From Planctomycetota bacterium (lineage in GTDB: Bacteria > Planctomycetota > PLA2 > JAEUHO01), in assembly GCA_965223505.1 (NCBI GenBank), contig CBDCWP010000044.1, positions 192,001-256,000 of the forward strand: a DNA stretch of 64,000 nucleotides. The letters run 5' to 3'. Numbering within the stretch: the first letter of the stretch is position 1; every line of letters starts with the position of its first letter. Position numbers and translations under genes: made by a program. Shown piece by piece: positions 35,834 through 55,082 of this stretch. Below the pieces are notes generated by a model that saw only the letters and a list, made by a program, of their open reading frames with translations, was not told where the DNA came from and ran no database searches.

Positions 35834-36247
35834 ATGCGAACCCTCTCCTCCCTGGTCCTGATCGCGTGCGTCGTCGCGGCGTGCGGCGAGGCCGACAAGA
35901 CCTCCGAGCCCGAGACGCCGGCGCCGAGCGGCAAGCTCCGCGTCGAGTACTACGAGATCAGCAAGCAGTGACCTTTCTGCCAGAACATCGTGCGTGCGGT
36001 CGGCACGCTGCAGGAAGATCCTGCGTACAAGGACAAGATCGAGAGCGAGATCGTTTCGATGAGCTCGGAGAAGGGCAAGGCGTCCGACGCGCTCTACGAC
36101 TGGGGCGACCGGATGCACGGACTCGTCGTGCTCGGACCCGACGGCGACGTGCAGGCCGTGCTCAAGGGACACTCGTGGGGCGGCCGCGACGACGTGTCCA
36201 TTGCTTTGAACAAACTGAAAGAGACGATCGACCCGCTCTTGAAGTGA
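35834..36247 (+). CDS. Putative selenoprotein: thioredoxin-like lipoprotein with U-P-F-C (in-frame TGA 35969-35971)
   Basis: MRTLSSLVLIACVVAAC lipobox..RVEYYEISKQ-TGA-PFCQNIVRAV continues in frame into the 35990 ORF; SECIS-like hairpin downstream. Confidence 0.85.
35973..36017 (+). promoter_or_regulatory. SECIS-like hairpin
   Basis: Upper stem GCGTGC/GCACGC, loop GGTCG at +27; lower stem CTTTCTGC/GCAGGAAG. Confidence 0.7.
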
Positions 36248-36583
36248 AACGACCGGTGCGCTCGTGAACCGACGGATGTATCGGATTCGATGGGCTCGTC
36301 GCCGCGCCGGCCGTCTTGACGCACCTCTCTTGTTTAAAGTCTGCGGGAGAACATCGGTTACGGGGGCCACGAGAAAAGCATTGCCAACCGGGGGAGAGTT
36401 CCGGTCGTATGAGCAAGGAAGCGAGCACGGGCAGAGAGCCCTAGGTGAAGAAACATGCCCCCCCCAGCAGAATTGAAGCCGCATGACGAAGTCGGACTGG
36501 CAGGAGGACTACGAGCCTCTGAGTGAGCCAAGCCGGCGGGGAGGGCTGGCAACTCCCTCTGCCCCATTTTTCGAAGGACTTGC

Positions 36584-36931
36584 ATGGCACCGATCACGCT
36601 GACGAGACGAACGTTCATGGCCGCGACCGGCGCGACCGTGGGCGCGATCGCGCTCGTGGGATGCGGCGGCGGCTCGACGCCGACCGCGACGCCGATCGAT
36701 ACCAGCAAGGCGTGGCGGCTGTCCGGCGCGAGGCGCCGGATCTCCAACGCCGCCAAGAGCCACAACGCCAACAAGGTCTTCGCAACCCCCCTGGCGGCCC
36801 ATGTGGGCCGCGCGCACCCCGGCGACACGTCCAAGATCGTTCCGATGGACGTCAATCCGAACACGTGGTTGAAGCACTTCGGCGCCGGCGACCCTTGCGT
36901 CGACCTGCGTCAGATCGGCGACAAGCTGTAG
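36584..36931 (+). CDS. Tat-exported small lipoprotein, unknown function
   Basis: TRRTFM twin-arginine motif; lipobox LVGC-GGG; GAAGGA RBS. Confidence 0.75.
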   Translation: MAPITLTRRTFMAATGATVGAIALVGCGGGSTPTATPIDTSKAWRLSGARRRISNAAKSHNANKVFATPLAAHVGRAHPGDTSKIVPMDVNPNTWLKHFGAGDPCVDLRQIGDKL

Positions 36932-36934
36932 CCG

Positions 36935-37627
36935 CTACTTCGGGTTCGTCGCCCAGAGCGTCGCTTCCGTGATGAAGCCGCGGTCGTGCATCGCGAGCAT
37001 GTCGACGATCATCTGCGCGACGTCGATCGCCTGGAGCTTCGTCGGGTTCTCCGGCCGTTCGCGCCCGCCGAAGCCGGTCTGCACCTCGCTCGGGTTGACC
37101 TGCATGACGCGCACATCGTGCTCCCGCAGCTCCGCGCGCCAGCACTCCGTCAATGCCGTGAGCGCAAACTTGCTCGCCGCGTAGGCGCCGCCGCCCTTGA
37201 AGCCCTTGCGCGCCGCCGTCGAGGCGACATTGACGATGTGACCGCTCGACTGGCTGATGAAGTGCTTCGCCGCGGCGCGCGCGACGAAGTAGGCGCCGAG
37301 CACGTTGACGCGTAGCGTCTTCTCGAAGTCGTCTCCGTCGCTGTCGACGAGCAGACCGAAGGTGCCGATCGCGGCGTTGTTGATCAAGACGTCCAGGCCG
37401 CCGAGCTCCGCGATCGCTTCGCTGACCATCATGTTCGCGTGGTCCTCGCGACCGACGTCGGCCTGGATCGGGTGGACGCCCAACTCCTCGGCCGCTTCGC
37501 GCAGCGCGGTCTCGTCGCGGCCGCAGATCGCCACGTCGGCGCCCTTGCCGTGGAGCATGCGCGCGGTCTCCTTGCCGATGCCGCGGCTGCCGCCGGTGAT
37601 GAGTACGCGGGCGTTCGAGAGATCCAT
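36935..37627 (-). CDS. SDR family oxidoreductase
   Basis: TGGSRGIG, NNAAIG, YAASK. Confidence 0.95.
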   Translation of the reverse strand: MDLSNARVLITGGSRGIGKETARMLHGKGADVAICGRDETALREAAEELGVHPIQADVGREDHANMMVSEAIAELGGLDVLINNAAIGTFGLLVDSDGDDFEKTLRVNVLGAYFVARAAAKHFISQSSGHIVNVASTAARKGFKGGGAYAASKFALTALTECWRAELREHDVRVMQVNPSEVQTGFGGRERPENPTKLQAIDVAQMIVDMLAMHDRGFITEATLWATNPK

Positions 37628-37694
37628 GCCGTGCTCCGTGTCGTCCAGGTGCGGGATTCGCTATTCTGCGTTCGGTCGGAAGGAGGGACGAACG

Positions 37695-37952
37695 ATGGCC
37701 GGTATCGAATGGGCCGTTCTGATCCTCCAGGGCTACGTCGCGGCCGGCTTCCTCTTCGCCGTGCCGTTCGCCTTCGTCGGCGCCAAGCGCATCGACCCGG
37801 CGGCCGCCGAGGGAACGCTCGGGTTCCGACTGCTGATCATCCCCGGCGCGGCCCTGCTTTGGCCGCTGTTGATTCGACCGTGGTTGCAAGGCGCGGCGTA
37901 CCGCCCGGCGATTCGTGACGCGCACCGCGACGCGGCGGACACGGACGCATGA
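37695..37952 (+). CDS. Small membrane protein, first gene of a 4-gene operon
   Basis: AGGAGG RBS; two hydrophobic segments; FRLLIIPG..LWP. Confidence 0.7.
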   Translation: MAGIEWAVLILQGYVAAGFLFAVPFAFVGAKRIDPAAAEGTLGFRLLIIPGAALLWPLLIRPWLQGAAYRPAIRDAHRDAADTDA

Positions 37953-38368
37953 TCCGGCGGCTGCGGCGGCAACATCGCGTCACGTTCCTGATCCTGGCGG
38001 TCTTGCTTCCGGCCGTGGTCGTGGCTGCGGTCCTGGCGCGACCCGAGCTGCCGCCGGAGCCGGAACAGCTTGCGTGGCGCGACCAGCGCCCCGGGGGCCG
38101 GACGACGTTCGAGATCGCACAGGAGTCCGGCTGGATCACGCTCACCCGCACATCCGCCTGCGGTGCGCCGGACCTGCTCCTCTACTGGGCGCCCGAACCG
38201 GGCCGGACGGGAGAGGCGGGGCTGCCCGAAGGTGCTCGCCTGCTCGGGACCCTCCCGCCGCAGCCCGACATGCGCGTTCGCCTGAGCGAGACCGGGGGAC
38301 ACGTGATCCTCTACAGCCTGGGTCATCGGGTCGTTCACGCGACGCGAGCGCTGGAGGCAGGTCGATGA
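37949..38368 (+). CDS. Membrane-anchored hypothetical protein
   Basis: ATGA overlaps on both sides; TM; PDLLLYW..LLG..LYSLGH. Confidence 0.7.
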   Translation: MIRRLRRQHRVTFLILAVLLPAVVVAAVLARPELPPEPEQLAWRDQRPGGRTTFEIAQESGWITLTRTSACGAPDLLLYWAPEPGRTGEAGLPEGARLLGTLPPQPDMRVRLSETGGHVILYSLGHRVVHATRALEAGR

Positions 38369-39399
38369 GCGTGAACTACCGCGCCGTCGGCTGGAATCGC
38401 CAGAAGCGCATCTACGACCTCGTGATGCTGGCCAGCGTTGGGGTATTCCTGATCGGCTTCACCGCCCTAGGTCGCATCGTCGATCCCAATCTCACGTCGA
38501 TCACACTGATGATCAGGGCGACGGCGGTGGCGGCGTTCGTTCTGCTTCACGTCACGCTGTCGATCGGACCGCTGTGCCGCTTGGACCCCCGCTTCCTTCC
38601 GTTGCTCTACAACCGGCGCCACATGGGTGTGACCGTGTTTGCCCTGGCGGCCGTTCACGCGTTCCTGGTCTACGCGCAGTTCCACGCCAATGGCGTGCTG
38701 CATCCGCTCGTGAGCATCCTCGTGGGGAGCGACCGCTACGACAGCCTCGCATGGTTCCCCTTCCAGCCGCTCGGCCTCGGTGCCTTGATCATCTTGCTGC
38801 TCATGGCAGCGACGAGCCACGACTTCTGGCTGCGAAACCTCACCGCCCCTGTGTGGAAGGCGCTGCACATGCTCGTGTATCTGGCGTACGCGCTCGCCGT
38901 CGCGCACGTCGCACTCGGCGCGCTCCAGCCCGAGCGAAGTCCCGTGCTGCTTGCGCTCCTCGGGCTCGGCGTGGCGTGGATCGTCGGACTCCATGCCTTG
39001 TCGGCGACTCGCCATCGAGTGATCGCGCCCGATACCGGCGACGACTTCGTCGATGTAGCGGCGGTGAGCGAGATCGCCGACAAGCGCGCAAAGATCGTCG
39101 AGATCTCCGGAGAGCGGGTCGCGGTGTTTCGCGACGGCAACCGGATCAGCGCCGTTTCCAACGTCTGCCAGCACCAGAGCGGGCCGCTGGGAGAGGGGCG
39201 CATCGGGAAGAACGGGTGCATCGCCTGCCCCTGGCATGGCTACGAGTACGAGCCGGCGACGGGCGCTTCGCCACCGCCGTTCACGGAGCGTATCCCGACG
39301 TTCAACGTTCGCGTCGAAGGAGATCGGGTCCTCGTGCATCCGCGACCGAACGCACCGGGCACGCGTGTCGAGCCCGCCGTCGTGGAGGGCGTCCGATGA
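38365..39399 (+). CDS. Ferric-reductase-like (MsrQ-type) TM domain fused to Rieske [2Fe-2S] domain
   Basis: NRRHMGV, AATSHD, WKALHMLVY..H; Rieske CQHQSGPL and CPWHG. Confidence 0.88.
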   Translation: MSVNYRAVGWNRQKRIYDLVMLASVGVFLIGFTALGRIVDPNLTSITLMIRATAVAAFVLLHVTLSIGPLCRLDPRFLPLLYNRRHMGVTVFALAAVHAFLVYAQFHANGVLHPLVSILVGSDRYDSLAWFPFQPLGLGALIILLLMAATSHDFWLRNLTAPVWKALHMLVYLAYALAVAHVALGALQPERSPVLLALLGLGVAWIVGLHALSATRHRVIAPDTGDDFVDVAAVSEIADKRAKIVEISGERVAVFRDGNRISAVSNVCQHQSGPLGEGRIGKNGCIACPWHGYEYEPATGASPPPFTERIPTFNVRVEGDRVLVHPRPNAPGTRVEPAVVEGVR

Positions 39400-40148
39400 A
39401 CGACGACTTCTACGTCGGCTATCACAAGCAGGCCGCGCCGCGCGTTGCTTCCTTCCTGCGCAAGGCGGTGCCCGTCGTGGTGGTCACCGCGCTCGTCGTC
39501 GGCGTCGTTGCGCTCACGGCCCATCGAAGGGTCGAAGTGTCCGTCTACGAGGCGCGAGAGATCCGTGAGCTCGAAGGTGTCATCCAGGAAGCGCCCTACC
39601 CGATGCTCCTCGTGGAGCGCCCGGGGCAGGCGGCGTCGGCGGCGCCCTACTCACGCTATCTGATCGTTCGATCGGGGCGGTACGGCGCAGCCGAGGACGT
39701 ACGCGGCCTGAACGGTCGTCGTGCCCGAGTTCCGGCACGGCTCATCTACCGGGGCAATCACACCGTCCTCCAGCTTGCGGGACCGATCGAGCCGCTCGAC
39801 GGCCCCGTCGTCGTGCCTCCGGATCCCGTGCGTGTCCATGACGTAGCTGTCGTGGGGGAGGTCGTGGACGGCAAGTGCTACCTCGGCCGCATGAGCCCCG
39901 GCGGAACGAAGGTCCATCGCGGGTGCGCGGCGCAGTGCATTCGCGGCGGCATCCCGCCGATCCTCGCCTCGATCGACCCGAGCGGCGTGCCCATGTACTT
40001 CCTGCTGACCTCCCCTGACGGGGCGCCGGTCAAGGACGCAGTCATCCCGTTCGTTGCAGAGCGCGTCCGCGTACGTGGCAGCTGGTATCGCCATGGAGAT
40101 CTCTACGAACTTCGCGCGGATCCGTCGACGTACGAGCGCGTGCCCTAG
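39396..40148 (+). CDS. Membrane-anchored protein with Cys/His motif
   Basis: GEVVDGKCYLG..HRGCAAQCIRGGIP; ATGA overlap. Confidence 0.75.
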   Translation: MNDDFYVGYHKQAAPRVASFLRKAVPVVVVTALVVGVVALTAHRRVEVSVYEAREIRELEGVIQEAPYPMLLVERPGQAASAAPYSRYLIVRSGRYGAAEDVRGLNGRRARVPARLIYRGNHTVLQLAGPIEPLDGPVVVPPDPVRVHDVAVVGEVVDGKCYLGRMSPGGTKVHRGCAAQCIRGGIPPILASIDPSGVPMYFLLTSPDGAPVKDAVIPFVAERVRVRGSWYRHGDLYELRADPSTYERVP

Positions 40149-41185
40149 CCGCCGTCGATTACCGACATGGGCTGGACCGACAGCGAGCTGAACCGCTGCG
40201 TCTTGCCGTCGAGCTTCTGGTCGAGGATCTTCTCGAAGACCGCCTGCTTCCACTCCAGAGGCGTACGTGGACTCGTTGCCGCGATCGCGTCGTGGATCTG
40301 GATCGAATAGAGCCACAGGCCGCCGGGCTCGACGACGGTGATGGTCTCCGATGAGAGACCGATGCCGGACTTCGACAACAGCGCGACGCTCATCACGTCG
40401 TCGGCCGTCGCGCCCATGGCCAGCCGCTGCTTCAGCTTCCGATGCGCGGCGGAGACGATCGACTCCGCGAACTCGGGCGTGATCTCGTGTTGGGCCGCGA
40501 TCTCGTCTCGGCGCTTGCGGTTGTAGTCCTCGATCGCGTGATCGGGCGCGCCCTTCGAGCTCTCATAGAAGGCCGCCGCGCGCTCGATGGCCGCGAGGGT
40601 CACGGCCGGCGACTGCAGCGCCGGCAGGCAGTCGAAGACCATGCCGTCGGGACGGCAGAAATACAGCGCGATCTCGCCGCCGATCGTGCCGCGAACGCTC
40701 TTGCCGTCGCCCAGGTCGAACTCGGCGATGGCCACGGGCGAGACGGACTCCCAGACCGGGGTGAAGGACTTGCTGACCGCGTCGATGATCCGGCGATCCG
40801 AGAACGTCACGGTTCTCGCAAGCTTGCCGTTCGCTCAGCAGAACTCCTCGTCGAACTTCCCGAAGAGGTGCAAGACCATCAGCGGCTTGTCTCCGCCCTT
40901 GGCTTCCTCCACGGAGCGCCGCCAGAGCAGGCGGCCGTCGCCACCCCACTGGCCGGTGATCTTCGAGAGCGCGCGCCGGCTGTGAACCTGCACCTTCACG
41001 CTGTCGCTCTCGAGTCCCGCCTGCAGGTCGGGAATCGCGTCTGCCCCCTTGGCGGCCCACGCCTGCACGGCGGCGCGCGCAACCTCCGGGTCGCCGCGGA
41101 ACTCGGCGAACGGCTGTTCACTCTGCGCATCACCGCAGGCGGCGAGCGCGACCAAGGCGATACAGGCGAGCACGGCGTGCTTCAT
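40145..41185 (-). CDS. Putative selenoprotein: Selenoprotein-N-like lipoprotein with C-U (in-frame TGA 40835-40837)
   Basis: Lipobox LAAC; KPLMVLHLFGKFDEEFC-TGA-ANGKLARTVTFSDRRIIDAVSKSFTPVWESV joins the two ORF-track pieces in frame; SECIS-like hairpin. Confidence 0.85.
40791..40829 (-). promoter_or_regulatory. SECIS-like hairpin
   Basis: Stem CGAGAAC/GTTCTCG, loop CGTGAC at +24; lower CGGC/GCCG. Confidence 0.65.
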
Positions 41186-41269
41186 GGCGGCCTCCCAACG
41201 GGCTGAGGACTCAGCCTGCCTGTGGAAACGAGCGGCGGTCGCAAAGAGTTCGCAAAACCCCGGAAGCGA

Positions 41270-41617
41270 TCATCCGCCCGCGCGCTTGACGGTCCAGCCG
41301 CGCGCTTCGAGCACGCCGACGAGCGCGTCGCGGTGATCACCCTGGATCTCGATCGTGTCGCCTTTGACGGCCCCGCCGGCGCCGCAGCGCGCCTTGAGCT
41401 GCTTGGCAAGCTGCTTGAGATCGGCGCCCGCCAGCGGAACGCCGGTGATGACGGTCACGCCCTTGCCCTTGCGGCCCTTCGTCGATCGGGAAACGCGCAC
41501 GATGCCGTCGCTCGGCGCGCCCGTGGAGGACGCCTTCTGCTTGCACCGGCACGCCGTCACGAGCCGGTTGCAATCCGGGCACATGCGGCCGTGATCGGTC
41601 GAGTAGACGCGCCGCAT
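41270..41617 (-). CDS. yciH: SUI1/YciH translation initiation factor
   Basis: GRKGKGVTVITG, LKARCGAGGAVK, IEIQGDHRD; N-terminal CPDC..CRC. Confidence 0.92.
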   Translation of the reverse strand: MRRVYSTDHGRMCPDCNRLVTACRCKQKASSTGAPSDGIVRVSRSTKGRKGKGVTVITGVPLAGADLKQLAKQLKARCGAGGAVKGDTIEIQGDHRDALVGVLEARGWTVKRAGG

Positions 41618-41796
41618 CACTCGGCCTGGGCCCGCACGTCGGCGCGTCCCTCCGCGTCGACCTCGACGTGGAGGACGTTGGCGCGGCAGCAGACCGGACA
41701 GTCTTCGACATAGCGCTGCCGCTCGCCTTGCGAAACGTCGATCGGGACGACGATCTCCTCGCCGCAGGCGTCGCACACGTAGGCGCCTTCGTTCAT
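41617..41796 (-). CDS. CPXCG-type cysteine-rich small protein
   Basis: MNEGAYVCDACGEEI..YVEDCPVCCRAN; TGATG overlaps on both sides. Confidence 0.85.
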   Translation of the reverse strand: MNEGAYVCDACGEEIVVPIDVSQGERQRYVEDCPVCCRANVLHVEVDAEGRADVRAQAE

Positions 41797-42104
41797 CAGT
41801 CCACGTAGGAGACGAGGTCGTCGGCGGTGTGGCGCCGCCCGTCGGGACCGTACGAGCGCACGCTCAGGCGCTCGCCTTCCGTATCGAGGACGTACGCGTT
41901 GCCCCAGGGGTCGAGGTCTTCGACGCCGATGTCCTTCAGGGAGGCCGGCTTCGACTCGTGCCGCCGCACCTGCTCGGAGAGGGCGGAGAGGTCCATGAGC
42001 GCCGCGCGACGCGCGGCCTTGATCTTTCAGCCTCACGGCGGCTTGATGAACGCGACGTAGCCACCGACGAGGGCCAGCAGGACGAGGGGGACGGCGAACT
42101 TCAC
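41796..42104 (-). CDS. Putative selenoprotein: GspG-like pseudopilin with U-G-U (TGA 42033-42035 and 42027-42029)
   Basis: GTG start; KFAVPLVLLALVGGYVAFIKPP-TGA-G-TGA-KIKAARRAALMDL..DPWGNAY..SYGPDG..ADDL; hairpin downstream. Confidence 0.72.
42001..42017 (-). promoter_or_regulatory. SECIS-like hairpin
   Basis: Perfect 7-bp stem GCCGCGC/GCGCGGC, loop GTC; +23 from first TGA, +17 from second. Confidence 0.6.
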
Positions 42105-42119
42105 GACGGACAGTATCCG

Positions 42120-42746
42120 TCAGAAATCGGGGCGCGCCAGCGGCCGCCCGGTCGTGTCGTAGGCGGCCGACGGAACGGCGATCTTCCGGGCGTCGGTGAG
42201 GGCCCAGACCATGAGCTTCGTCGGCGGCGCGTCCGCGGCCGCGCTCGGTCGCTCGGTCATCGATTCGTGCACGAACCCGAGCTTCTTCGGGACGTTCCAG
42301 CTCGATTCGTTGGCGGGCGCGCACACCATTTCGACGCGCGCCACGCCGTGCAACGCGAACGCGGCCCACACCATCGCCGCGGCGGCCTCCGTCGCGTAGC
42401 CGCGGCCGGTTTGGCGCACGTCGATCCAGTAGCCGATCTCGAGCGCGTCTTCGCCGGCCCGGCCGAGCAGCATGGTCTCTCCGAGCAGCGTCGTTTCGTC
42501 CCGCGAGAAGATGCCGTAGCAGAAGTCCTCGCCGTCGTAGAAGCGGCCGCGCCGCCACTGGATCCAGCCCACGGTGCCTTCGAGCGATTGCGGCTCGTGC
42601 TTCATGAACGGGACCCACGGCCGCAGATGCGCGTCGGACGTGTCGAGCGACTCCCGCACCCTGGGCGCGTCGCCCTCTCGCCACTGGCGAAGGACCAGAC
42701 GCTCGGTCTCGATGCGGTGAGCGGGCGGATGATTGGCGGGATTCAC
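42120..42746 (-). CDS. GNAT acetyltransferase, RimJ/RimL-like; start uncertain
   Basis: IETERLVLR, EIGYWI..GRGYATEA, NESSWNVPKKLGF. Confidence 0.88.
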   Translation of the reverse strand: MNPANHPPAHRIETERLVLRQWREGDAPRVRESLDTSDAHLRPWVPFMKHEPQSLEGTVGWIQWRRGRFYDGEDFCYGIFSRDETTLLGETMLLGRAGEDALEIGYWIDVRQTGRGYATEAAAAMVWAAFALHGVARVEMVCAPANESSWNVPKKLGFVHESMTERPSAAADAPPTKLMVWALTDARKIAVPSAAYDTTGRPLARPDF

Positions 42747-42793
42747 GTCGGCATCTTCATCGAGGTCGAACGAAGCGTCGTATCTTCCCACCG

Positions 42794-44059
42794 ATGCGTG
42801 TGCTGATCCAAACCCTGGGCAGCGCGGGGGACGTTCACCCGTTCATCCCCATCGGTGCGACGTTGCGCGACATGGGACACGACGTCGTCGTGTGGGGCAA
42901 CGAGGCGTTCGAGTCGGTGATCACCGGCGCCGGCCTCGCGTTCGTCGAAGCCGGCACGAAAGCCGAGCTCGAAGCGACGATGGCCGATCCCGACTTGTGG
43001 CATCCGCGCAAGGGCCTCGACGTCGTCTTCGAGCAGGGCCTCGTCCCCAGCCTCGAGCCGACGCTGGATTCGATGCTGGAGCGGGTCGAGCACGGCAACA
43101 CGCTCGTCGTCGGCAGCACGCTCGGGCTCGCGTCGCGCATGCTGCGCGACATCGCGAAGGTGCCCATGGTCACGCTCCATCTCGCGCCGTGCGCGTTCCG
43201 ATCGACGCATCGCGCGCCGCGTCTGCCGGGCATGTGGGCGCCGGACTGGACGCCGCGCTGGTTGAAGCGCGCGTGGTGGTGGTTGAGCGACAAGGTCATC
43301 GACCCGATGCTCTGCCCGGCCCTCAACGAGCTGGGCGAGCAATACGGCCTGCCGCCGATCCGCAGCGCGATGGGGGTGTGGAACCACTCGCCGGACAAGA
43401 TCGTCGCGCTGTTCCCCGATTGGTTCGGCCCGCCGCAGCCGGACTGGCCGCCGCAGGTCGTCACGACGGGATTCCCGCTGTTCGATCAAGCCGCGGGTCG
43501 CGAGGTGGACGAGGCGCTGCACGCGTGGATCGACGACGGGGAAGCGCCGATCGTCGTCACCGCCGGATCGGCGAACGTGCACGGCGAGGCCTTCTACGAG
43601 GCGTCGATCGACGCGTGTCGCCGACTCGGCAGGCGCGCGCTGGTCATCACCAGCAATCGCGCGCTGCTGCCCGCGTCCCTGGGCGACGACGTGCGTCACG
43701 CGGCCTACGCGCCGTTCAGCCGCGTGCTCCCGAAGGCGGCGGCGCTGGTTTCGCACGCCGGTGTCGGCACCTGCGCGCAGGCCCTTGCCGCGGGTGTGCC
43801 GCACCTCGCCCGTCCGATGGCGTTCGACCAACCCGACAACGCCTCGCGACTCGAAGACCTGGGCGTCGGCGCTTCGCTGCCCGCGGCGCGCTACAACGAG
43901 CGTCGCGCCGCGAAGATGCTCGCGCGCCTGCTCGAAAGCGAGACGGTGCAGGACGCGTGCCGGCGCGTGGCCGCCCGCATGCCGTCGAACGACGAGGTTC
44001 TCCGAGAGATCTGCGAACAGATCGTGAGCGCCGCCGACGCGGCGCCTACTGCTTCTTGA
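42794..44059 (+). CDS. GT1 glycosyltransferase (RhlB/sterol GT-like)
   Basis: GSAGDVHP; HAGVGT; PMAFDQPDNA. Confidence 0.92.
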   Translation: MRVLIQTLGSAGDVHPFIPIGATLRDMGHDVVVWGNEAFESVITGAGLAFVEAGTKAELEATMADPDLWHPRKGLDVVFEQGLVPSLEPTLDSMLERVEHGNTLVVGSTLGLASRMLRDIAKVPMVTLHLAPCAFRSTHRAPRLPGMWAPDWTPRWLKRAWWWLSDKVIDPMLCPALNELGEQYGLPPIRSAMGVWNHSPDKIVALFPDWFGPPQPDWPPQVVTTGFPLFDQAAGREVDEALHAWIDDGEAPIVVTAGSANVHGEAFYEASIDACRRLGRRALVITSNRALLPASLGDDVRHAAYAPFSRVLPKAAALVSHAGVGTCAQALAAGVPHLARPMAFDQPDNASRLEDLGVGASLPAARYNERRAAKMLARLLESETVQDACRRVAARMPSNDEVLREICEQIVSAADAAPTAS

Positions 44060-46692: not shown

Positions 46693-48006
46693 ATGAAGAT
46701 CTGCGTCGTGGGAACGGGCTACGTCGGATTGGTGACCGGCGCGGGCTTCGCGGAGATGGGCAACGACGTCGTCTGCGCGGACCTCGACGAAGGCAAGATC
46801 GCCGCGCTCGAACGCGGCGAGACGCCGATCTCGGAGCCGGGGCTCGACTCGATGATCGCGCGAAACGTCGCGGGCGGGCGCCTGACGTTCACGACCGACG
46901 TCGAGTCGGCGGTCGCGGACGCGGAGGCGATCTTCGTTGCGGTCGGCACGCCCCAGCGCTCGGACGGCGGCGCCAACCTGTCTGCCGTCGATGCGGTGGC
47001 GGAGACCGTTGCGAACGCGTCCAAGCGCGAGTGCGTGCTGGTGCTGAAGAGCACCGTGCCGGTCGGAACCAACGAGCGCGTGAGCCGCATCGTGAAGAAG
47101 GTGACCGACCATCCCATTCACGTCGTCAGCAATCCGGAGTTCCTCAAGGAGGGCGACGCCGTCGGGGACTTCCTGCGTCCCGACCGCATCGTGATCGGCT
47201 GTCAGGCCGACGACGAGTTCGCGCGCGATCTGATGAGCCGGCTCTATCACCCGGTCTCGCTTCGCCGCGACAAGACGGTCTGGATGTCGCCCCAGAGCGC
47301 GGAGATCACGAAGTACGTCGCGAACACGATGTTGGCGATGCGGATCTCGTTCATGAACGAGATCGCGGCGCTGTGCGAGCGGGTCGATGCGGACGTCAAC
47401 GACGTTCGCATGGGCGTCGGATCCGACCACCGCATCGGTCCGGAGTTCCTCTACGCGGGCCCGGGCTACGGCGGCTCGTGTTTCCCCAAGGACGTCATCG
47501 CTCTCGTTCACGTGGGCCGGGAGTACGGCATGCCGCTCGAGCTGGCGCAAGCGACCGAGAACGTGAATCAACGCCAGAAGGGCGTGATGTTGCGCAAGCT
47601 CAAGGACCATTTCGAGGGCGACCTGCGCGGCAAGAAGGTCGCGCTGTGGGGCATCGCGTTCAAGCCGCGCACCGACGACATCCGCGAGTCGCCGGCCCTG
47701 ACGCTCATCGACGGGCTGTTCGCCGAAGGCGCGACGGTGTCCGCGCACGATCCCGAGGCGGGGGACGAGGCGCGCCGTCGCTTCGGCGACGCGCTCGAGG
47801 TCGTCGACGGTCCCTACGAGGCCGTGAGAGACGCGGACGCGCTCGTTCTCGTGACGGAGTGGCGCGTCTACCAGAATCCGGACTTCGGGCGCATCAAAGA
47901 CGCGATGCGAACACCGTTCCTGCTGGACGCACGCAACATCTGGGCGACGTACGGGCTTCGCAAGCAGGGCTTCGACTACACCGGGATCGGCGTGCGCGGC
48001 AGCTGA
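46693..48006 (+). CDS. ugd: UDP-glucose 6-dehydrogenase
   Basis: GTGYVG, KSTVPVG, SNPEFLKEG, GYGGSCFPKD, FKPRTDDIRES. Confidence 0.95.
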   Translation: MKICVVGTGYVGLVTGAGFAEMGNDVVCADLDEGKIAALERGETPISEPGLDSMIARNVAGGRLTFTTDVESAVADAEAIFVAVGTPQRSDGGANLSAVDAVAETVANASKRECVLVLKSTVPVGTNERVSRIVKKVTDHPIHVVSNPEFLKEGDAVGDFLRPDRIVIGCQADDEFARDLMSRLYHPVSLRRDKTVWMSPQSAEITKYVANTMLAMRISFMNEIAALCERVDADVNDVRMGVGSDHRIGPEFLYAGPGYGGSCFPKDVIALVHVGREYGMPLELAQATENVNQRQKGVMLRKLKDHFEGDLRGKKVALWGIAFKPRTDDIRESPALTLIDGLFAEGATVSAHDPEAGDEARRRFGDALEVVDGPYEAVRDADALVLVTEWRVYQNPDFGRIKDAMRTPFLLDARNIWATYGLRKQGFDYTGIGVRGS

Positions 48007-48026
48007 CAATCGACTAGTCTCTGCCC

Positions 48027-48299
48027 ATGCCCTGTCTCGTCGTCCTGATCGCCCTCGCCGCGCCGCGCCTGGCGATCGTGCTCGTCGTCATCTTCAGCGA
48101 TTACATCGGGCAGGCGTATCAGTCAGTCTGGGTGCCGCTGCTGGGGTTCTTCTTCCTGCCGCTCTCGACGCTGACGTACGCGTGGGCCATGCACTCACGC
48201 GGGGGCCTCGAGGGCCTGCCGCTCGTCGTGTTCATCATCGCGGTGTTGGTCGATCTGGGGGTCCTCGGCGAAGGAAGCAAAAAGAAGCACCGCCGGTAG
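48027..48299 (+). CDS. Small membrane protein
   Basis: Three hydrophobic segments; PLLGFFFLP. Confidence 0.75.
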   Translation: MPCLVVLIALAAPRLAIVLVVIFSDYIGQAYQSVWVPLLGFFFLPLSTLTYAWAMHSRGGLEGLPLVVFIIAVLVDLGVLGEGSKKKHRR

Positions 48300-48393
48300 C
48301 ACGAATCCTCGAGCTCGTGTGCCGTGAATTAGCGGAAGACGATGATGCTCCGCCCTTCGACGGGCGTTTCAATGGACGTACGGAGGGCCTTGC

Positions 48394-49431
48394 GTGAGAC
48401 GGTGCGTGGGAATCGGCGTCTTCGCGGTGCTGGGGACGGTCGCGTTCCTAGCCGCCGGGCCGCCTGTGTCCGGCGATCCGGCCTGGCCGTACCCGACCGG
48501 AATCTCGGAGCAGAAGCACGAAGGTCGCGAGTTCGAGATCTACATCCCGGACGACGTCCATGATCCGAAGGCGGGCTACTCGCTCATCGTCACGATCACC
48601 GCCGAGGCCGACGATTTGGAGCACCTGGGCGTCCATCGCTACATCGTCGTCGCGCCGAAACCGAAGAGCGGTGTGAGGACCGTTTGGAGCGCGGCGGAGG
48701 TCAAGGAGCTTCACGCCCTCACCAAGTATCTGACGAAGCAGCTCGAGATCGAAGAGCACCGCGTTCATGCCGTGGGCATGAACGAGATTCAAGGCGTCTT
48801 CGGCTTGATGGTCTTCGGCAAGGGCAGCCCGTTCGTGAGCGCCACGTTCGTGGACACCGCGTTTCGCGGCGGATCCGTTTCGAGCCATCTCAAGAAGAGG
48901 CTCAACGTGCTCGCCTTCGACTTCGACGGCACGCACGCCGGCGGCATCAAGACGATCGAGGAATCGCTGCGCGGCAAGGTGAAGACGGTCGAGCTGTCTT
49001 CCGCGACGGCCGGTATCCACGGCGAGTACTTCCGATATTGGCTCGGGGTGATGGACGGGCGGTTCGAGCCCGGCCACGACCTTTCCCTCGACTGGGAGAC
49101 CGACGCCGACGCGGCGCAGGACATCCCGGGGCAGGTCAAAGCGTCGAAGAAGTGCGCGCTCGTCTACTTCTGGTCGCCGTCCGACAAGGACGACGCGGAC
49201 GCGAAGGCCTTGCAAAACGAAACCTTCTTCGATCCCGTGATTCGCGCGTACGGGAAGCGCGTGATGCCGTACATGCTGCAGCGCGAGGAGCACCCGAAGC
49301 TCTTCGAGGCGCTCGGGCTGGAGCGGACTCCGGCCGTGGCGGTCGTCGACAAGGAAGGCAGGACCAAGCTCTTCGAAGGCGCGATCAGGATGAAGGCGCT
49401 GGCCAAGGCGTTGAAACGCGCGACGAAGTAG
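48394..49431 (+). CDS. Exported protein: degenerate hydrolase-like N domain plus thioredoxin-like C domain lacking CxxC
   Basis: Signal peptide; EIYIPDD..YSLIV; ALVYFW..GLERTPAVAVVDKEG. Confidence 0.55.
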   Translation: MRRCVGIGVFAVLGTVAFLAAGPPVSGDPAWPYPTGISEQKHEGREFEIYIPDDVHDPKAGYSLIVTITAEADDLEHLGVHRYIVVAPKPKSGVRTVWSAAEVKELHALTKYLTKQLEIEEHRVHAVGMNEIQGVFGLMVFGKGSPFVSATFVDTAFRGGSVSSHLKKRLNVLAFDFDGTHAGGIKTIEESLRGKVKTVELSSATAGIHGEYFRYWLGVMDGRFEPGHDLSLDWETDADAAQDIPGQVKASKKCALVYFWSPSDKDDADAKALQNETFFDPVIRAYGKRVMPYMLQREEHPKLFEALGLERTPAVAVVDKEGRTKLFEGAIRMKALAKALKRATK

Positions 49432-49493
49432 GCGGTATGAGGGGGCGGGCGTTAGGCGTCGGTAGGATGGACGCGGTCGCCCGGAGGCCTGTC

Positions 49494-50360
49494 ATGCAGA
49501 AGATCACGCTGGTGCTCGCCGTCGTCGGCATCGGGTTCGGCGTCGTCGCGCTCATCGAGAACCGCGACCTGCGATCGGAGCTGGAGTCCCGCGAGCTGAT
49601 CGGATTCGTCGGAGACCCCGCTCAACCGCGCGAAAGCACGGAGCGAGACGTGTTGCGCCGTCTCGAGGCCGTCGAGGAAGACGTCGCGCGGGTCGATCGG
49701 GTCGTGACCGCGAAGGAGAAGGAGCCGGATGTTCCCGGTTTGGAGGGGCGGCCGAGTCTGCCGTCGATGCCGTCCCCCGATCCCGAAGGCGAAAGCGAAG
49801 CGGAGGCGGCGGCGCGGATCGCGGCGTTGGTCGACGTGGCCGTGGAGAAGCGCACCGCGCTCTACGAGGCCATGAAGAACAAGAAGCCGTCGCTGGACGC
49901 GTTCGCCAAGGCACTCGAGCTGACGGCCGAGCAACGCGCAGCAACCGAGGCCGAGGTCCTTCGCGGTCAGCGGGAGATCAAAGCGCTCTTGGAGACCGTC
50001 AGCGACGAGGGCACGAACTTCAAGGAGGAGCTGGTCGAGGTGCTGGCGACCGGCATGGCGAAGCCCGGCCAGGGGGGCGCCCGGTGGGGGAAGCTCTTCT
50101 CGAAGCTGGTCACCGAAATGGTGCCGGGCACCGATCAGACGTATGCCGAGGCGGCCAATGCGGTCAAGCAGTCCGTGCGCGAAGGATTCCGCCGGCACAT
50201 GGACGAGCGGCAGTACGCGCGCTTCGAAGCCTGGCAGATGGATCCCACCGAGGTGCAGGGCATCCCCGGAAGTCCGTGGGAGGAGCTGCAGCCGCTGATC
50301 GTCGAGCGCGCGCGTGAGCTGGGCGCGGACATTCCGGACGACGTCGGCCTCGCGAAGTAG
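49494..50360 (+). CDS. Membrane-anchored coiled-coil hypothetical protein
   Basis: GGAGG RBS; N-terminal TM; helical. Confidence 0.65.
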   Translation: MQKITLVLAVVGIGFGVVALIENRDLRSELESRELIGFVGDPAQPRESTERDVLRRLEAVEEDVARVDRVVTAKEKEPDVPGLEGRPSLPSMPSPDPEGESEAEAAARIAALVDVAVEKRTALYEAMKNKKPSLDAFAKALELTAEQRAATEAEVLRGQREIKALLETVSDEGTNFKEELVEVLATGMAKPGQGGARWGKLFSKLVTEMVPGTDQTYAEAANAVKQSVREGFRRHMDERQYARFEAWQMDPTEVQGIPGSPWEELQPLIVERARELGADIPDDVGLAK

Positions 50361-50473
50361 GCCGCAAGACGAATCGCGAATCCTAATCCGCTCCAAAGCG
50401 CGCGCTCAGCCCGGCGCAAGATCGCACGCCTACGGTCCCACGCATTGGACACGAGATCCCGAAAGGAGCTCCA

Positions 50474-52540
50474 ATGCGTACCGTCCGGTTCACTCTCCTG
50501 GTCCTCGTCCTCCTCCTCACGCACGTCGCGCTCCTGCTCGGTTGCGGAACCAGCGGAAAACCGAACGATCCAGCCGAGCCCGTCTTCTCGATGTCTCTCT
50601 TCGGCCCGAACCCGCATCTGATCACGAACCCGCACTTCCCGCTCGTGCCCGGCACCACGACGCTGTCGCAGTCGGAGACCGACGAAGGCATGGAGACCCT
50701 CGTCTCCGAGGTGCTCGCGCCCACGCGCGTCGTCGCCGGGCTCGCGTGTCGCGTCGTGCGCGTGCGGGAGTATCTAGGCGAGCTGCTGGTCGAGGACGCC
50801 CACGACTGGTACGCGCAGGACGCCGCCGGCAACGTCTGGTACATGGGCGAAGACGTCGTCAACTACGAGTACGACGACGACGACAACTTGGTCGACACCA
50901 ACGGCGACGGCTCTTGGGAGGCCGGACTCGACATCGACGGCGTCGGCACGCCCGCCGCGCCGGGCATCATCATGAAGTCCACCCTGGTGGTGGGGGACAC
51001 GTACCGGCAGGAGTTCTACCCGACCGTGGCCGAGGACATGGGCGGGATCGCCGCGCTCAACGTACCGGTTGCGCTCGCCTGCGGGACCAACTACACGTGC
51101 CTGCAGACCCGCGACTGGAACCTGCTGGAGCCCGGTGTCTTCGAGCGCAAGTTCTACGCCCCGGGCATCGGGGTCGTCGCCGAAGAGGTCGAGGGCACGG
51201 ACGAGCGCGTGGAGATGCGTGGTGTCTTCCTGCCGACACCGGTCAGCTTGCCGAATCAGGGCGACGCGACCTTCTCGAACCCCACCGAGATCACCAACCC
51301 CTACTTTCCGCTTGCCGTCGAGACCATGCGGGGGCTCGTCGTGCCGACGGAGGAAGGCGGGGAGACCGTGATCCAGGAGGTGCTCGACGAGACCCGCGTC
51401 GTGAACGGCGTCACCTGCCGCGTCTTGCGGGTGCGGGAGTACGAAGGCGACCTGCTCAAGGAGGACACCAAAGACTGGTTCGCGCAGGACGACGCGGGCA
51501 ACGTCTGGTACTTCGGCGAGGAGGTCGTGAACTACGAGTACGACGACGACGACAACCTCGTCGACACGAACGACGACGGCTCGTGGGAAGCGGGCGTCGA
51601 CGGCGCGCTGGCCGGTGTCCAGATGTGGGCGGCGCCGGCGATCGGCGTGTCCTACTACCAGGAGTTCTATGCCGGTGAGGCCGAGGACATGGCAGTGCCG
51701 ATCGCGACGGGCGTCTCGCTCACGCTTCGCAACGGGATCTCGTACGACAACTGCCTGAAGACACTCGAGTGGACGCCGCTCGAGCCGAGTGTGATCGAGT
51801 TCAAGTACTACGCGCCCGGGGTCGGCCTGATCCAGGAGCAGCCGCTCGACGGGGAGTCGGAGGGCATCGAGCTCTTGGGGGTTCTCGACACGAGCTTGGG
51901 CACGTTGCCGAACTTCGCCGCGGCGACGTTCAGCGTGCCGGAGGTCATCACGAACCCGTATCTGCCCTTCGTGCCCGGAACGACCTGGGACTACGAGGTC
52001 GAGACCGACGAGGGCACCGAGACGATCTTCGTCGAGGTCTTGGCCACGACGCGCGTCGTCAACGGGCTGACGTGCACGGTGGTGCGGGACCGCGTGTTCC
52101 TCGACGGCCTCGAGATCGAGGACACGCACGACTGGTACGCGCAGGATGACGCCGGCAACGTCTGGTACATGGGCGAGGACGTCATCAACTACGAGTACGA
52201 CGAGAACGGCGTCCTCATCGGCACCGACAACGAGGGCGCGTGGGAGGCCGGTGTCGACGGGGCGTTGCCGGGCATCATCATGTGGGCCGTTCCCACAGTC
52301 GGGACGTCGTACCGACAGGAGTTCTACGAGGACGAGGCCGAGGACATGGCGGTCGTCATTGCCACCGGCGTGAGCATCACGCTCGGCGACGGCACGATCT
52401 ACAACAACTGCGTGCAGGTCCTCGAGTGGTCGCCGCTGGGACCGGAGTCGCTGGAATACAAGTTCGCGGCGCCCGGCATCGGCGTGGTTCTGGAGCTCAA
52501 GCCGTCTTCCGAAGAGGCCGTCGAGCTCGTGGGGCCCTGA
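50474..52540 (+). CDS. Acidic lipoprotein with three tandem ~220-aa domains
   Basis: AAGGAG RBS; lipobox LLGC; three ITNPxxP..DWxAQDxAGNVWYxGE..WEAG..EDM..APGxG units. Confidence 0.85.
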   Translation: MRTVRFTLLVLVLLLTHVALLLGCGTSGKPNDPAEPVFSMSLFGPNPHLITNPHFPLVPGTTTLSQSETDEGMETLVSEVLAPTRVVAGLACRVVRVREYLGELLVEDAHDWYAQDAAGNVWYMGEDVVNYEYDDDDNLVDTNGDGSWEAGLDIDGVGTPAAPGIIMKSTLVVGDTYRQEFYPTVAEDMGGIAALNVPVALACGTNYTCLQTRDWNLLEPGVFERKFYAPGIGVVAEEVEGTDERVEMRGVFLPTPVSLPNQGDATFSNPTEITNPYFPLAVETMRGLVVPTEEGGETVIQEVLDETRVVNGVTCRVLRVREYEGDLLKEDTKDWFAQDDAGNVWYFGEEVVNYEYDDDDNLVDTNDDGSWEAGVDGALAGVQMWAAPAIGVSYYQEFYAGEAEDMAVPIATGVSLTLRNGISYDNCLKTLEWTPLEPSVIEFKYYAPGVGLIQEQPLDGESEGIELLGVLDTSLGTLPNFAAATFSVPEVITNPYLPFVPGTTWDYEVETDEGTETIFVEVLATTRVVNGLTCTVVRDRVFLDGLEIEDTHDWYAQDDAGNVWYMGEDVINYEYDENGVLIGTDNEGAWEAGVDGALPGIIMWAVPTVGTSYRQEFYEDEAEDMAVVIATGVSITLGDGTIYNNCVQVLEWSPLGPESLEYKFAAPGIGVVLELKPSSEEAVELVGP

Positions 52541-52549
52541 GCCACGCGA

Positions 52550-52987
52550 TCAGCTCGAGGCGCCCGGCTCGGTGGGCATCGACGCCAGCCACGCCGTGAC
52601 GGCGAGGCACAGCGCGATCAAGACGCCGCGCAGGATCCAGCTCTGGGTCGCGAACACGGTCGTCAGGCCGAACGACAGCAGAGTGAACACGATCGCCGCT
52701 GCCTTCGCCCGCGGCGGGAGGTAACGGCCCTCCTCGCCGCTGCGGCAGATGGGGCCGAAGAACCGGTTCGAGCGCAGCCAACGGTGCGCCGGTTCCCACG
52801 CGCGCGCATAGCAGCCTGCTGCCAGCAGCACGAACGGCGTCGTCGGGACGAGCGGCAAGATCACGCCCAACACGGCGAAGGCGAGCGACACCGTGCCACC
52901 GACGATCAAGGCCGCGCGCACGCTCCATGACGTGCGTGCACCGGCGTCGTCTTCGGGGGTGGGGGGCATGGCGCGCACATCGTCCAC
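52550..52987 (-). CDS. ybaN: YbaN/DUF454 membrane protein
   Basis: GVILPLVPTTPFVLLAA..HRWL..FGP. Confidence 0.85.
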   Translation of the reverse strand: MDDVRAMPPTPEDDAGARTSWSVRAALIVGGTVSLAFAVLGVILPLVPTTPFVLLAAGCYARAWEPAHRWLRSNRFFGPICRSGEEGRYLPPRAKAAAIVFTLLSFGLTTVFATQSWILRGVLIALCLAVTAWLASMPTEPGASS

Positions 52988-53011
52988 GGATGCAGGTGCG
53001 GTTCAAGCGGT

Positions 53012-53752
53012 TCAGCGGACGCGGCGGAACACGTCGAGAGAGAATCCCATGGTCTCGCGTCCCCACCGCTGCTGTGCGGCGTTCCACGCCCGCTTCTCGG
53101 CGATCATTGCATCGACGGCCGGATCGCCGGCGTGCGCGTCGGCATACGACTCGTGGTTCGCGAGCACGGTGCCTTCGAGTCGATCCCATGCCTCTCGGGA
53201 TGCGATCTGATGCCGCTCGCTCTCGAAGCCGCATCGCCGCGCGACATCGAGAAACGACTCGCGATCGCGCAGTGCGTCCGCGGGCAACCCCGTTGCCTCG
53301 AGGTACTCGACGGGCGGCGGCTGCATCCAGAAACCGTCGCCGTAGATCAGCCACCCGTCGCCGCGAAGCCAGCGCGCGTAGAGCCGCAGCGTCTCGTCGA
53401 GTCGGTCGTCTCGATACGGCCCGCCGTTTGCGATGACCACATCGAACGAATCGTCCGCGAACGCCAGGTCGTCGGCATCGCACGCGAGCCAGGCCGCGTC
53501 GGCGTCAGGCACTCGGGCCTGGAGGGCCGATCGCGCGAGCCCGAGCGCCGCCTCGGATCGATCGACGCCCGTGATCCGCGCGCCGAGCCGTTCTGCGAGA
53601 TCGATCAACGTCGTGCCCCGGCCGCAACCGACGTCGAGCGCCGACAACCCTGCGGGCAGCGGCAGCGACGCGAGCAGCTCCCTTACGTCCGCAGCGGAGA
53701 CCGGCCCCCACATGTCGAGGCCGGCGTAGTGATCGATGTCGCTCCGGCCCAT
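53012..53752 (-). CDS. Class I SAM-dependent methyltransferase
   Basis: ALDVGCGRG, GVDRS, SFDVV. Confidence 0.88.
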   Translation of the reverse strand: MGRSDIDHYAGLDMWGPVSAADVRELLASLPLPAGLSALDVGCGRGTTLIDLAERLGARITGVDRSEAALGLARSALQARVPDADAAWLACDADDLAFADDSFDVVIANGGPYRDDRLDETLRLYARWLRGDGWLIYGDGFWMQPPPVEYLEATGLPADALRDRESFLDVARRCGFESERHQIASREAWDRLEGTVLANHESYADAHAGDPAVDAMIAEKRAWNAAQQRWGRETMGFSLDVFRRVR

Positions 53753-53810
53753 GGCGCCGAGCCTACCGCGGCGGATCGACGCCCGGGCGAAGCGTGTCTA
53801 TACTTCGCCG

Positions 53811-55082
53811 ATGCGCAATCTGATTCTCGCGTGCGCCGTGCTGGCGCTCTCGCCCGTCGTCCTTGCCGAGGAGCTCACCGAAGCGTCCGCTCCGATCTTC
53901 TCCGAGCCGATCCAGGTCATGGCCGACGGCGTCCCGATCGCGGTCGAGGCGCCCGGATTCGCCTGCCCGACCTTCCACGACGTGGACGGAGACGGATTGC
54001 GTGACCTCGTGGTCGGGCAGTTCAAAGAGGGGAAGCTCCGACTCTTCAAGAACGTCGGCAGCGCCAAGGCGCCCAAGTTCGCGAAGGGCGAGTGGCTCAT
54101 GACCGGCGAGAAGGCCGCGGTCGTTCCCGGCGTGTGGTGATGCACCAGCTCCACGCCGCAGTTTGCGGACATGAACGGTGACGGCCGGCTCGACATCGTC
54201 TCCGGTTGCTACAGCCAACGCGGGCAAGCGATGGTGGCGCCCGTCTGGGTGCTCTACCGCAACGAGGCCGGCGACTTCGCCGAAGCGGTCGCGCTCAAGA
54301 ACGACGCCGACGAGCACATCGTCGCGCGGGACATGGAGGGCGTGGTGACGGAGCGCATCTGCACCGAGCCCTTCGCCTTCGACTGGGACGCGGACGGGGA
54401 CCTCGACTTCGTCATCGGGAACTTCAGCGGAGCGTTCCTGCTAGCGATCAACGTCGGGACGGCGAAGGAGCCGAAATTCGAGGGCAAGCCCGAGTACCTG
54501 ACCAACGCCGCGGGCGAGCGCCTGAAGGTCAACGGCAATCACAGCGCGCCCTTCCTGGTGGACTGGGACGGCGACGGCGACGTGGACCTGCTCAGCGGCA
54601 CCGGCGGGGGCGGGGTCCAGATCGCCGAGAACGATCCGGGCGAGGACGGCGCGCACCGCTTCTCCGACTTCCGCGAGCTGATCCCCGCACCCGACATGCG
54701 CGCGTCGGCGGCGATCTGTCCGCCCGACACACCGGTGACGCCCGCGTCATCGTGGCGCATCTGCGTGGCGGATTACGACGGCGACGGCAAGCTCGACATC
54801 ATCGTCGGGGACTGCTTGCGCCGCAGTCATCCCAAGGGCGAGCTGACCGTCGAAGAAGCAACGGCGGAACAGGCGAAGTGGATCGAGAAGAACAACGAGT
54901 TGCGCGACGAGATGACCGCGCTGCGCAAGCAGCTGGCCGAGGCGACCGAGAACGAGGCGCAGGAGGAGCTGGCCGCCAAGGTCAAGGAGCTCAACCAGGC
55001 GCGCAGCGACCACTACCGGGCCCGCAGCGAGTTCATCGACGCCGTGTCCACCGGCCACGTCTGGGTCTACCTTCGCAAGTAG
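53811..55082 (+). CDS. Putative selenoprotein: exported FG-GAP/VCBS repeat protein with W-U-C (in-frame TGA 54138-54140)
   Basis: Signal peptide; DVDGDGLRDL repeat before the TGA; VPGVW-TGA-CTSSTPQFADMNGDGRLDI continues with four more DxDGDG-type repeats. Confidence 0.85.
54143..54180 (+). promoter_or_regulatory. SECIS-like hairpin
   Basis: Stem CCGCA/TGCGG, loop GTT at +21; lower CACC/GGTG. Confidence 0.55.

Follow-up and report, generated by a model that had tools for sequence, protein, structure and literature searches.

Four genes interrupted by in-frame TGA codons, which we name P1 to P4, lie between positions 35834 and 55082 of a 64,000-nucleotide stretch of Planctomycetota DNA (hereafter the window), and our analysis argues strongly that they are selenoprotein genes, made as full-length exported proteins by recoding of UGA. 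In bacteria, insertion of selenocysteine (Sec, U) needs a UGA together with an adjacent selenocysteine insertion sequence (SECIS) that is read by SelB. The mechanism is this established bacterial route of Sec insertion; the novelty lies in the families, their vicinal Sec/Cys centres, a mostly exported Planctomycetota selenoproteome and, possibly, the use of one SECIS for two UGAs. The window corresponds to positions 192001-256000 of contig C44 in a draft metagenome-assembled genome (MAG) of 5.15 Mb (44 contigs, completeness 92.5%, G+C ~68%).

This reading draws on the in-frame TGAs themselves, on the Sec machinery of the genome, on the conservation of TGA or Cys at the same column in relatives, on hairpins that are conserved and covary, and on the folds. 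For P1, P2 and P4, each taken singly, our confidence is slightly greater still, while P3, which is the weakest case of the four and the most novel, we regard as a likely selenoprotein. We would give even chances to a fuller proposition about P3: that its two UGAs, separated by a single codon, both specify Sec through one SECIS, giving a U-G-U motif (a possible diselenide or metal-/selenium-binding site) that a pseudopilin-like scaffold would hold on the outer side of the cytoplasmic membrane, and that, with P1, P2 and P4, it is part of a large, mostly exported Planctomycetota selenoproteome in which several families are unlisted as far as searched. The features are as follows.

35834..36247, + strand: P1 gene, from translation (coding 35834-36244, 137 aa, motif SKQ-U-PFC)
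35969..35971, + strand: P1 predicted Sec codon TGA (U46), from translation and locus alignment
35992..36008, + strand: P1 SECIS-like hairpin (6-bp stem GCGUGC/GCACGC, loop GGUCG)
40145..41185, - strand: P2 gene, from translation (coding 41185-40148, 346 aa, motif EEFC-U-ANG)
40835..40837, - strand: P2 predicted Sec codon TGA (U117), from translation and locus alignment
40799..40818, - strand: P2 SECIS-like hairpin (7-bp stem CGAGAAC/GUUCUCG, loop CGUGAC)
41796..42104, - strand: P3 gene (coding 42104-41799, 102 aa, GTG start 42104-42102, motif KPP-U-G-U-K)
42033..42035, - strand: P3 first predicted Sec codon TGA, from translation and ortholog alignment
42027..42029, - strand: P3 second predicted Sec codon TGA, from translation and ortholog alignment
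42001..42017, - strand: P3 hairpin (7-bp stem GCCGCGC/GCGCGGC, loop GUC)
53811..55082, + strand: P4 gene (coding 53811-55079, 423 aa, motif GVW-U-CTSS)
54138..54140, + strand: P4 predicted Sec codon TGA (U110), from translation and locus alignment
54156..54168, + strand: P4 SECIS-like hairpin (5-bp stem CCGCA/UGCGG, loop GUU)

Five in-frame TGA codons in four continuous reading frames

A first-pass annotation of this DNA, made from its letters, had picked out five in-frame TGAs in the four genes, and all five are where it placed them. Its proposal that the halves form one coherent protein holds when TGA is read as U, which yields four continuous proteins, and the codons fall in the Cys/Sec-type motifs that it had described: UxxC in P1, CU in P2, UGU in P3 and UC in P4. 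The downstream hairpins likewise have exactly the loops it had listed (GGTCG, CGTGAC, GTC and GTT). Codon-usage scores are positive on either side of the TGA for P1, P2 and P4; P3, with a stop 28 codons upstream, has no such score.

We searched 301 genomes of the phylum, translated with read-through of stops, and aligned the 20 best loci per family to inspect the column of the TGA. That column is kept across orthologs 25-73% identical in dozens of genomes, with the frame and the conserved residues continuing on both sides, and for P1, P2 and P4 the expectation that homologs would hold TGA or Cys there was borne out. Relatives in the protein library are mostly C-terminal fragments, as expected of genes mis-split at the TGA, and very probably at least three of the four families are cut in two by standard annotation. 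One could argue that the TGAs of all four genes are ordinary stops and the genes split or decayed into pseudogenes, since gene calling yields only fragments and TGA often terminates genes here. This explanation is already contradicted for P1, P2 and P4 by the TGA at a single column across such divergent orthologs, by the Cys found in relatives and by the covarying hairpin that follows the TGA, and we consider it very improbable.

The genome encodes selenocysteine machinery and uses TGA as a stop

The first-pass annotation had pointed to selA, selB, selD and tRNA-Sec as genes to look for in the rest of the genome, and all four were found. Profile searches gave 507.2 bits for selA, 335.7 bits for selB and 338.1 bits for selD, each above the curated cut-off, and the tRNA-Sec scored 69.2 bits with the anticodon TCA (read as UCA). 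The selD gene contains one in-frame TGA of its own, and its product is a Sec-containing SelD. As to their arrangement, selA and selD adjoin (G000:C8:36851-39232, loci L009 and L010), selB is on contig C41 and tRNA-Sec on C43.

TGA nevertheless serves as an ordinary stop in this genome, and the first-pass claim that there is no global code change stands: RF2 is found (496.6 bits vs a cut-off of 370), and TGA ends 18 of the 48 confident window genes, 509 of 1329 long open reading frames (ORFs) genome-wide (38%) and the P1 gene itself (36245-36247). These observations, together with the complete Sec system and its tRNA-Sec(UCA), speak against the idea that a changed code or a suppressor tRNA lets TGA stand here for one of the standard amino acids (Trp, Gly or Cys). 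That idea could appeal to the Trp at the column in 4 of 28 P1 homologs and to the Gly given for the nearest match of FG-GAP candidates in a 2016 table (PMC4807772); most homologs have Cys, not Trp, and we hold this explanation to be very unlikely too. Less probable still are sequencing or assembly errors, which a draft genome in 44 contigs might lead one to suspect. The same codon occurs in independent genomes, and sequencing contigs (Logan, 4 runs) cover all TGA sites with zero differing letters and hence no sense codon at any of them, with the reservation that the four runs belong to a single study, probably including the source sample, and so are not independent.

P1, P2 and P4 keep TGA or Cys at the column and a hairpin behind it

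P1 is, by its model, a small thioredoxin-fold protein with a U-P-F-C active site and a putative lipoprotein. The AlphaFold model (pLDDT 87.1) has a b-a-b-a-b-b-a fold with U46 at the start of helix 1, and the top Foldseek matches are thioredoxins (probability 1.0, target-normalised TM up to 0.79). Residues C49, G96 and H113 are invariant and H95 nearly so, and the Cys of the putative lipobox VAAC↓G is ~90% conserved in 29 family sequences. The TGA stands at the same column in 19/19 loci of other genomes and was present in 27 of the 28 non-self rows of the phylum search. Among full-length homologs (28 of 150 listed, picked by coverage), the column holds Cys in 24 and Trp in 4, so that the first-pass view that Trp, Arg or Gly there would speak against Sec is answered by Cys in the large majority and touched by Trp in the remainder. 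The P1 hairpin, whose loop begins 26 nt past the TGA, shows compensatory changes in five of its six pairs across 20 sequences; its covariation score is 0.391 vs 0.126 +/- 0.028 in shuffles (0/500 reach it), and slid controls stay at <=0.168.

P2 consists of HEAT-like helices, a DsbD-gamma/Thioredoxin_7-like domain with the vicinal pair C116-U117, and a helical C-terminal domain. Its model (pLDDT 81.5) places U117 between a strand and a helix, at the N-terminus of helix 118-125, an arrangement typical of thioredoxin folds, and P2 probably has such a fold. The first-pass statement that the four genes are unrelated thus needs amending for one pair, as P1 clearly and P2 probably share the thioredoxin fold. 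The putative P2 lipobox LAAC↓G is visible in orthologs too. TGA occupies the column in 17 of 19 other loci and Cys in the other two, and of the 72 rows of the phylum search 55 have a TGA and 17 have none. The hairpin of P2, with a loop beginning 23 nt past the TGA, is predicted by RNAalifold with seven pairs, five of them showing compensatory changes. Of the seven stem pairs, 6-7 persist in all 18 TGA forms, but only 3 and 4 in the two Cys forms, which lack the hairpin.

P4 is predicted to be a secreted FG-GAP/VCBS repeat protein with the vicinal pair U110-C111 and a coiled-coil-like C-terminal tail. It matches the Pfam family FG-GAP_3 (PF13517) in four stretches (81.6 bits vs a cut-off of 26.9) and begins with a putative signal peptide, VLA↓EE. 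In the phylum search each of the 80 best rows (E <= 1.1e-30), from 64 of the 301 genomes, has exactly one TGA; the TGA-less rows further down match other FG-GAP proteins only in part. The TGA lies in GVW-U-CTSSTPQ in 19/19 aligned loci, and 21 of 22 full-length homologs (22 of 120 listed, picked by coverage) have Cys-Cys in place of Sec-Cys. Across 20 sequences, 96% of the cells of the P4 hairpin are paired vs <=52% with a slid partner; its loop begins 20 nt past the TGA. On the 3' side of this hairpin, position 54166 reads T instead of C in contigs of a related organism, which turns a G-C pair into G-U and keeps the pairing.

Significant NCBIfam matches were found for none of P1 to P4, and P1 and P2 had no significant Pfam match either. 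In E. coli, the fdhF-type SECIS is an in-ORF stem-loop shortly after the UGA with a G-U early in its apical loop. The P1 to P4 hairpins are like it in position and in the loop G-U; they are unlike it in their short stems (5-7 bp) and, in P3, in standing behind two UGAs. An Rfam scan of window positions 35000-56000 returned no SECIS family and two sub-threshold matches that we put down to chance.

Points that weigh against the selenoprotein reading

Several observations count against our interpretation. The Trp residues at the P1 column (in P0148, P0217, P0231 and P0243, in contexts G-W-P-x-C) are the first; they are probably an artefact of gene callers that choose a table with TGA=Trp, as the sequences are of low complexity and look low in GC. 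Foldseek matches to P2 are weak (DsbD-gamma and 3f9u, E 0.015-0.1). The sole compensatory change in the P4 hairpin is the window's own G-C for A-U, and the hairpin has only this one because the peptide STPQFVD is nearly invariant. Folding of the single hairpins against dinucleotide shuffles gives z of +0.23, -0.22, -0.56 and -0.71 for P1 to P4; with z near zero, we rejected single-sequence folding as SECIS evidence, and the support for the hairpins is comparative throughout. The genome-wide hairpin rule was written after these four had been seen. The clustering of the genes is not conserved, the P2 and P4 orthologs of genome G167 being 2.2 Mb apart. Finally, Sec insertion at the UGAs, export and redox chemistry of P1 to P4 are what we infer from these data.

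P3 may use one hairpin for two UGA codons

P3 is predicted to be a membrane-anchored, pseudopilin-like protein. Its N-terminal hydrophobic anchor helix, the long helix and the C-terminal motif DPWGN..Y....GPDG...DD recall the layout of GspG, the major pseudopilin of type II secretion. Unlike GspG, it falls below both family cut-offs (C-terminal part vs T2SSG, PF08334, 20.5 bits under a cut-off of 21; TIGR01710, 16.3 bits under 88.85), contains U-G-U and lacks the prepilin cleavage motif G-F-T-L-I-E, which is present in generic relatives. The loop of its hairpin begins 22 nt past the first TGA and 16 nt past the second, and this hairpin is the sole strong one available to either.

The phylum search returned a single true ortholog, in genome G233 of another genus (52% identity), and this ortholog keeps both TGAs (1/1). 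It shares the GTG-AAG start 22 codons before PP and the block KPP-U-G-U-[KR]-x-KAAR, its hydrophobic segment differs from that of P3 by conservative replacements, and synonymous differences (CCG/CCC, GGC/GGG, CGT/CGG) flank the unchanged TGAs. The hairpin of the ortholog has the same 7-bp stem with the loop GGA instead of GUC; a covariation test was impossible because there are only two sequences. The genes that neighbour P3 differ in G233.

The two TGAs of P3 might instead be real stops, giving a 23-residue hydrophobic peptide and a separate 66-aa protein from the ATG at 41996, or P3 might be a decaying pseudopilin-like gene. In favour of this, we found no second ortholog among 40 genomes of the order or the 301 of the phylum, and the other 58 rows of the search were generic pseudopilin C-termini; a scan of the genome collection for the KPP-U-G-U pattern gave one match, the known G233 MAG, and searching by protein words brought back nothing beyond the 66-aa fragment of the window itself, which is also the only piece in database annotation. 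No Cys homolog of P3 was found, ordinary pseudopilins having other residues there. Both genomes, moreover, have a downstream ATG, in G233 two codons past the second TGA, and one hairpin decoding two UGAs 6 nt apart is without bacterial precedent in the literature searched. Yet two genera at this distance keep both TGAs, the GTG-AAG start, the anchor and the UGU block with synonymous changes alongside, and the downstream ATGs stand at different columns in the two genes. It would be anomalous for a T2SSG-like domain to lack its N-terminal helix, the G167 homolog of P3 is one uninterrupted ORF across the same stretch, and the hairpin is kept at SECIS distance. We therefore consider ordinary stops in P3 unlikely, though far less so than for the other three genes, and continue to read P3 as a selenoprotein. 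Eight matches to the KPP-U-G-U pattern in the metagenome collection showed no coding similarity and were rejected as chance.

Proposed route to the exported products

On each mRNA, SelB carrying Sec-tRNA(Sec) would bind the hairpin, located 15-20 nt past the UGA, and deliver selenocysteine, so that one full-length protein is made rather than two fragments. In P3 both UGAs would be served by the one hairpin, with its loop 22 and 16 nt downstream. The first-pass annotation had given all four proteins a signal peptide, lipobox or transmembrane segment, and our calls, made by inspection and by a crude hydrophobic-N-terminus rule, agree with it: a putative lipobox in P1 and P2, a hydrophobic anchor in P3 and a signal peptide in P4. 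All four products are thus expected to end up outside the cytoplasm: P1 and P2 would be lipoproteins, P3 would be anchored in the membrane, and P4 would be exported by its signal peptide.

There, P1 might act as a small thiol/selenol oxidoreductase of the U-x-x-C type, whose two invariant or near-invariant His could bind metal, and P2 as a DsbD-gamma-like thioredoxin-fold protein with the vicinal Cys-Sec pair as its redox centre. In P4, presumably of beta-propeller type as an FG-GAP protein, the vicinal Sec-Cys (Cys-Cys in relatives) probably forms a selenenylsulfide switch, while P3 would expose its U-G-U on the outer side of the membrane.

A probable larger selenoproteome

A codon-usage scan of all TGAs in the genome covered 30,737 with stop-free flanks, of which 491 look coding on both sides; 36 of these were hand-picked for Pfam. 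In 21 of the 36 a Pfam match spans the TGA (2 of these 21 below the gathering cut-off), the families being AhpC/TSA-Redoxin, Thioredoxin_7 including DsbD, T4_deiodinase with EF-hands, DUF3179, CMD, ArsC, Rdx and PMSR. In one further candidate an HMA domain lies away from the TGA, and the remaining 14 have no Pfam match, some of them being clearly wrong-frame artefacts. With P1 to P4 and selD, the genome probably holds about 27 selenoprotein genes, mostly of the thioredoxin fold and mostly exported. By the crude rule, signal-like N-termini occur in 21/26 selenoprotein genes vs 401/981 control genes (Fisher p = 4.9e-5), in keeping with the first-pass suggestion of a selenoprotein-rich organism that uses Sec mainly in envelope proteins.

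The P1 to P4 region is the densest selenoprotein patch of the genome. When 27 genes are placed at random in 5.15 Mb, four fall within 18.2 kb in 0.2% of cases and six within 64.3 kb in 0.045%, both figures being post hoc; the six-gene patch comprises P1 to P4 and two genes 3-11 kb upstream of the window start. We rejected a functional operon for the cluster, as the neighbouring genes have no common theme and, in other genomes, the orthologs lie scattered. The two upstream genes encode an exported AhpC/TSA-Redoxin protein with YQSW-U-PGC (L117, G000:C44:180984-182045) and an ArsC-family protein with KST-U-SDC (L132, G000:C44:188712-189074).

Other loci of the scan are of interest in themselves. 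Two exported proteins combine an EF-hand with an iodothyronine-deiodinase-like domain (L113, G000:C24:62476-63720, and L138, G000:C7:87082-88686; domain scores of 92.7 and 110.8 bits), with the TGA in SYT-U-QPF and SHT-U-GPF. A DsbD has its predicted Sec in the C-terminal thioredoxin-like domain (L119, G000:C11:5262-7664, ADW-U-ATC), and a signal-peptide protein has LT-U-VVC ahead of its HMA domain (L116, G000:C33:25982-26527). A DUF3179 protein contains VTY-U-VIC (L120, G000:C12:89840-92386), and two tandem paralogous genes for exported Thioredoxin_7-like proteins contain KDF-U-GRC and KDN-U-GPC (L114/L115, G000:C30:71795-73668).

Relation to known selenoproteins and significance

The C-terminal Gly-Cys-Sec-Gly of mammalian thioredoxin reductase, a flavoenzyme, lies on a flexible tail, and its adjacent Cys and Sec can form an eight-membered selenenylsulfide ring. 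P2 (C-U) and P4 (U-C) resemble it in having adjacent Cys and Sec, for which, by analogy, we propose such a ring; in contrast to the tail of thioredoxin reductase, their pairs are embedded in a thioredoxin-like domain (P2) and in an FG-GAP repeat (P4). Vicinal Cys-Sec and Sec-Cys in these two scaffolds would be bacterial counterparts of the selenenylsulfide of thioredoxin reductase.

P1, and probably P2, are like the thioredoxin-fold UxxC/CxxU selenoproteins (Prx-like, thiol:disulfide oxidoreductase-like, DsbA/TlpA-like) in having Sec where the first helix begins, an in-ORF SECIS and Cys homologs. UxxC/CxxU thioredoxin-fold families appear in the parts of the Sargasso Sea and GOS surveys drawn on here (PMC1088965, PMC2398784). 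P2 differs from those families in its vicinal C-U, which is neither CxxC nor UxxC, and in its HEAT-like and helical domains, and P1 in being a putative lipoprotein with conserved His.

For P4 there is a partial precedent in Kim et al. 2016 (PLoS One, PMC4807772), whose Table S9 lists four "ASPIC UnbV; FG-Gap repeat" candidates from two Planctomycetes genomes. In each the in-frame TGA splits the gene into two annotated genes, a SECIS was predicted in three of the four, and the nearest match has Gly; the passages of that paper on these candidates give no alignment, distribution or motif. P4 is like them in being a Planctomycetes FG-GAP protein split by a TGA, with family identity compared by description, and it differs in having no UnbV_ASPIC Pfam match and in the Cys-Cys of its homologs, as opposed to the reported Gly.

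More recent surveys bear on the remaining families. BSepDB, in the passages used here, has 111 families, and its top-ten organisms, with 46-63 genes each, include no Planctomycetota; this 2026 list is headed by Desulfobacterota, Nitrospinota-like and Dehalococcoidia lineages (PMC13326102). The available text of the deep-Sep paper, which names the bSECISearch model, indicates that deep-Sep cannot find families without Cys homologs (PMC12013277). FG-GAP, VCBS and Planctomycetes go unmentioned in the passages seen of PMC13326102, PMC12013277, PMC13188914, PMC9312934 and the Olavius symbiont paper (PMC1976440). Our literature search did not find "selenocysteine" together with "VCBS", and found "selenoprotein" with "FG-GAP" only in work unrelated to bacteria.

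In the P4 and P1 families, hundreds of database entries cover only the C-terminal part of the protein, and reading TGA as Sec restores full-length exported proteins with their redox centres. The P4 family of FG-GAP proteins with a vicinal Sec-Cys occurs in about one fifth of the sampled phylum genomes, and fragment annotations exist in Verrucomicrobiota too. Judged by their N-termini, some four fifths of the selenoproteins of this bacterium appear to work outside the cytoplasm; because the host is not a sulfate reducer and lies outside the lineages heading the BSepDB list, the use of selenium in an oxidising envelope becomes testable in a new phylum. If P3 is real, a bacterial SECIS that serves two neighbouring UGAs would constrain models of SelB recycling and of the spacing between UGA and SECIS.

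Neighbouring genes

The genes around P1 to P4 encode CHAT, AsmA-like, SDR, Rieske/ferric-reductase, SUI1, CPXCG, GNAT, glycosyltransferase and exonuclease proteins, as well as a UDP-glucose dehydrogenase, a DUF454 protein, a methyltransferase and a permease. Between P1 and P2, the gene at 38365-39399 (+) fuses a ferric-reductase-like transmembrane domain to a Rieske [2Fe-2S] domain. At 50474-52540 (+), a gene without Pfam match encodes a 688-aa lipoprotein-like protein made of three ~200-aa repeats, each of which holds GNVWY(M/F)GE(D/E)V.NYEYDDDDNLVDTN.DGSWEAG.

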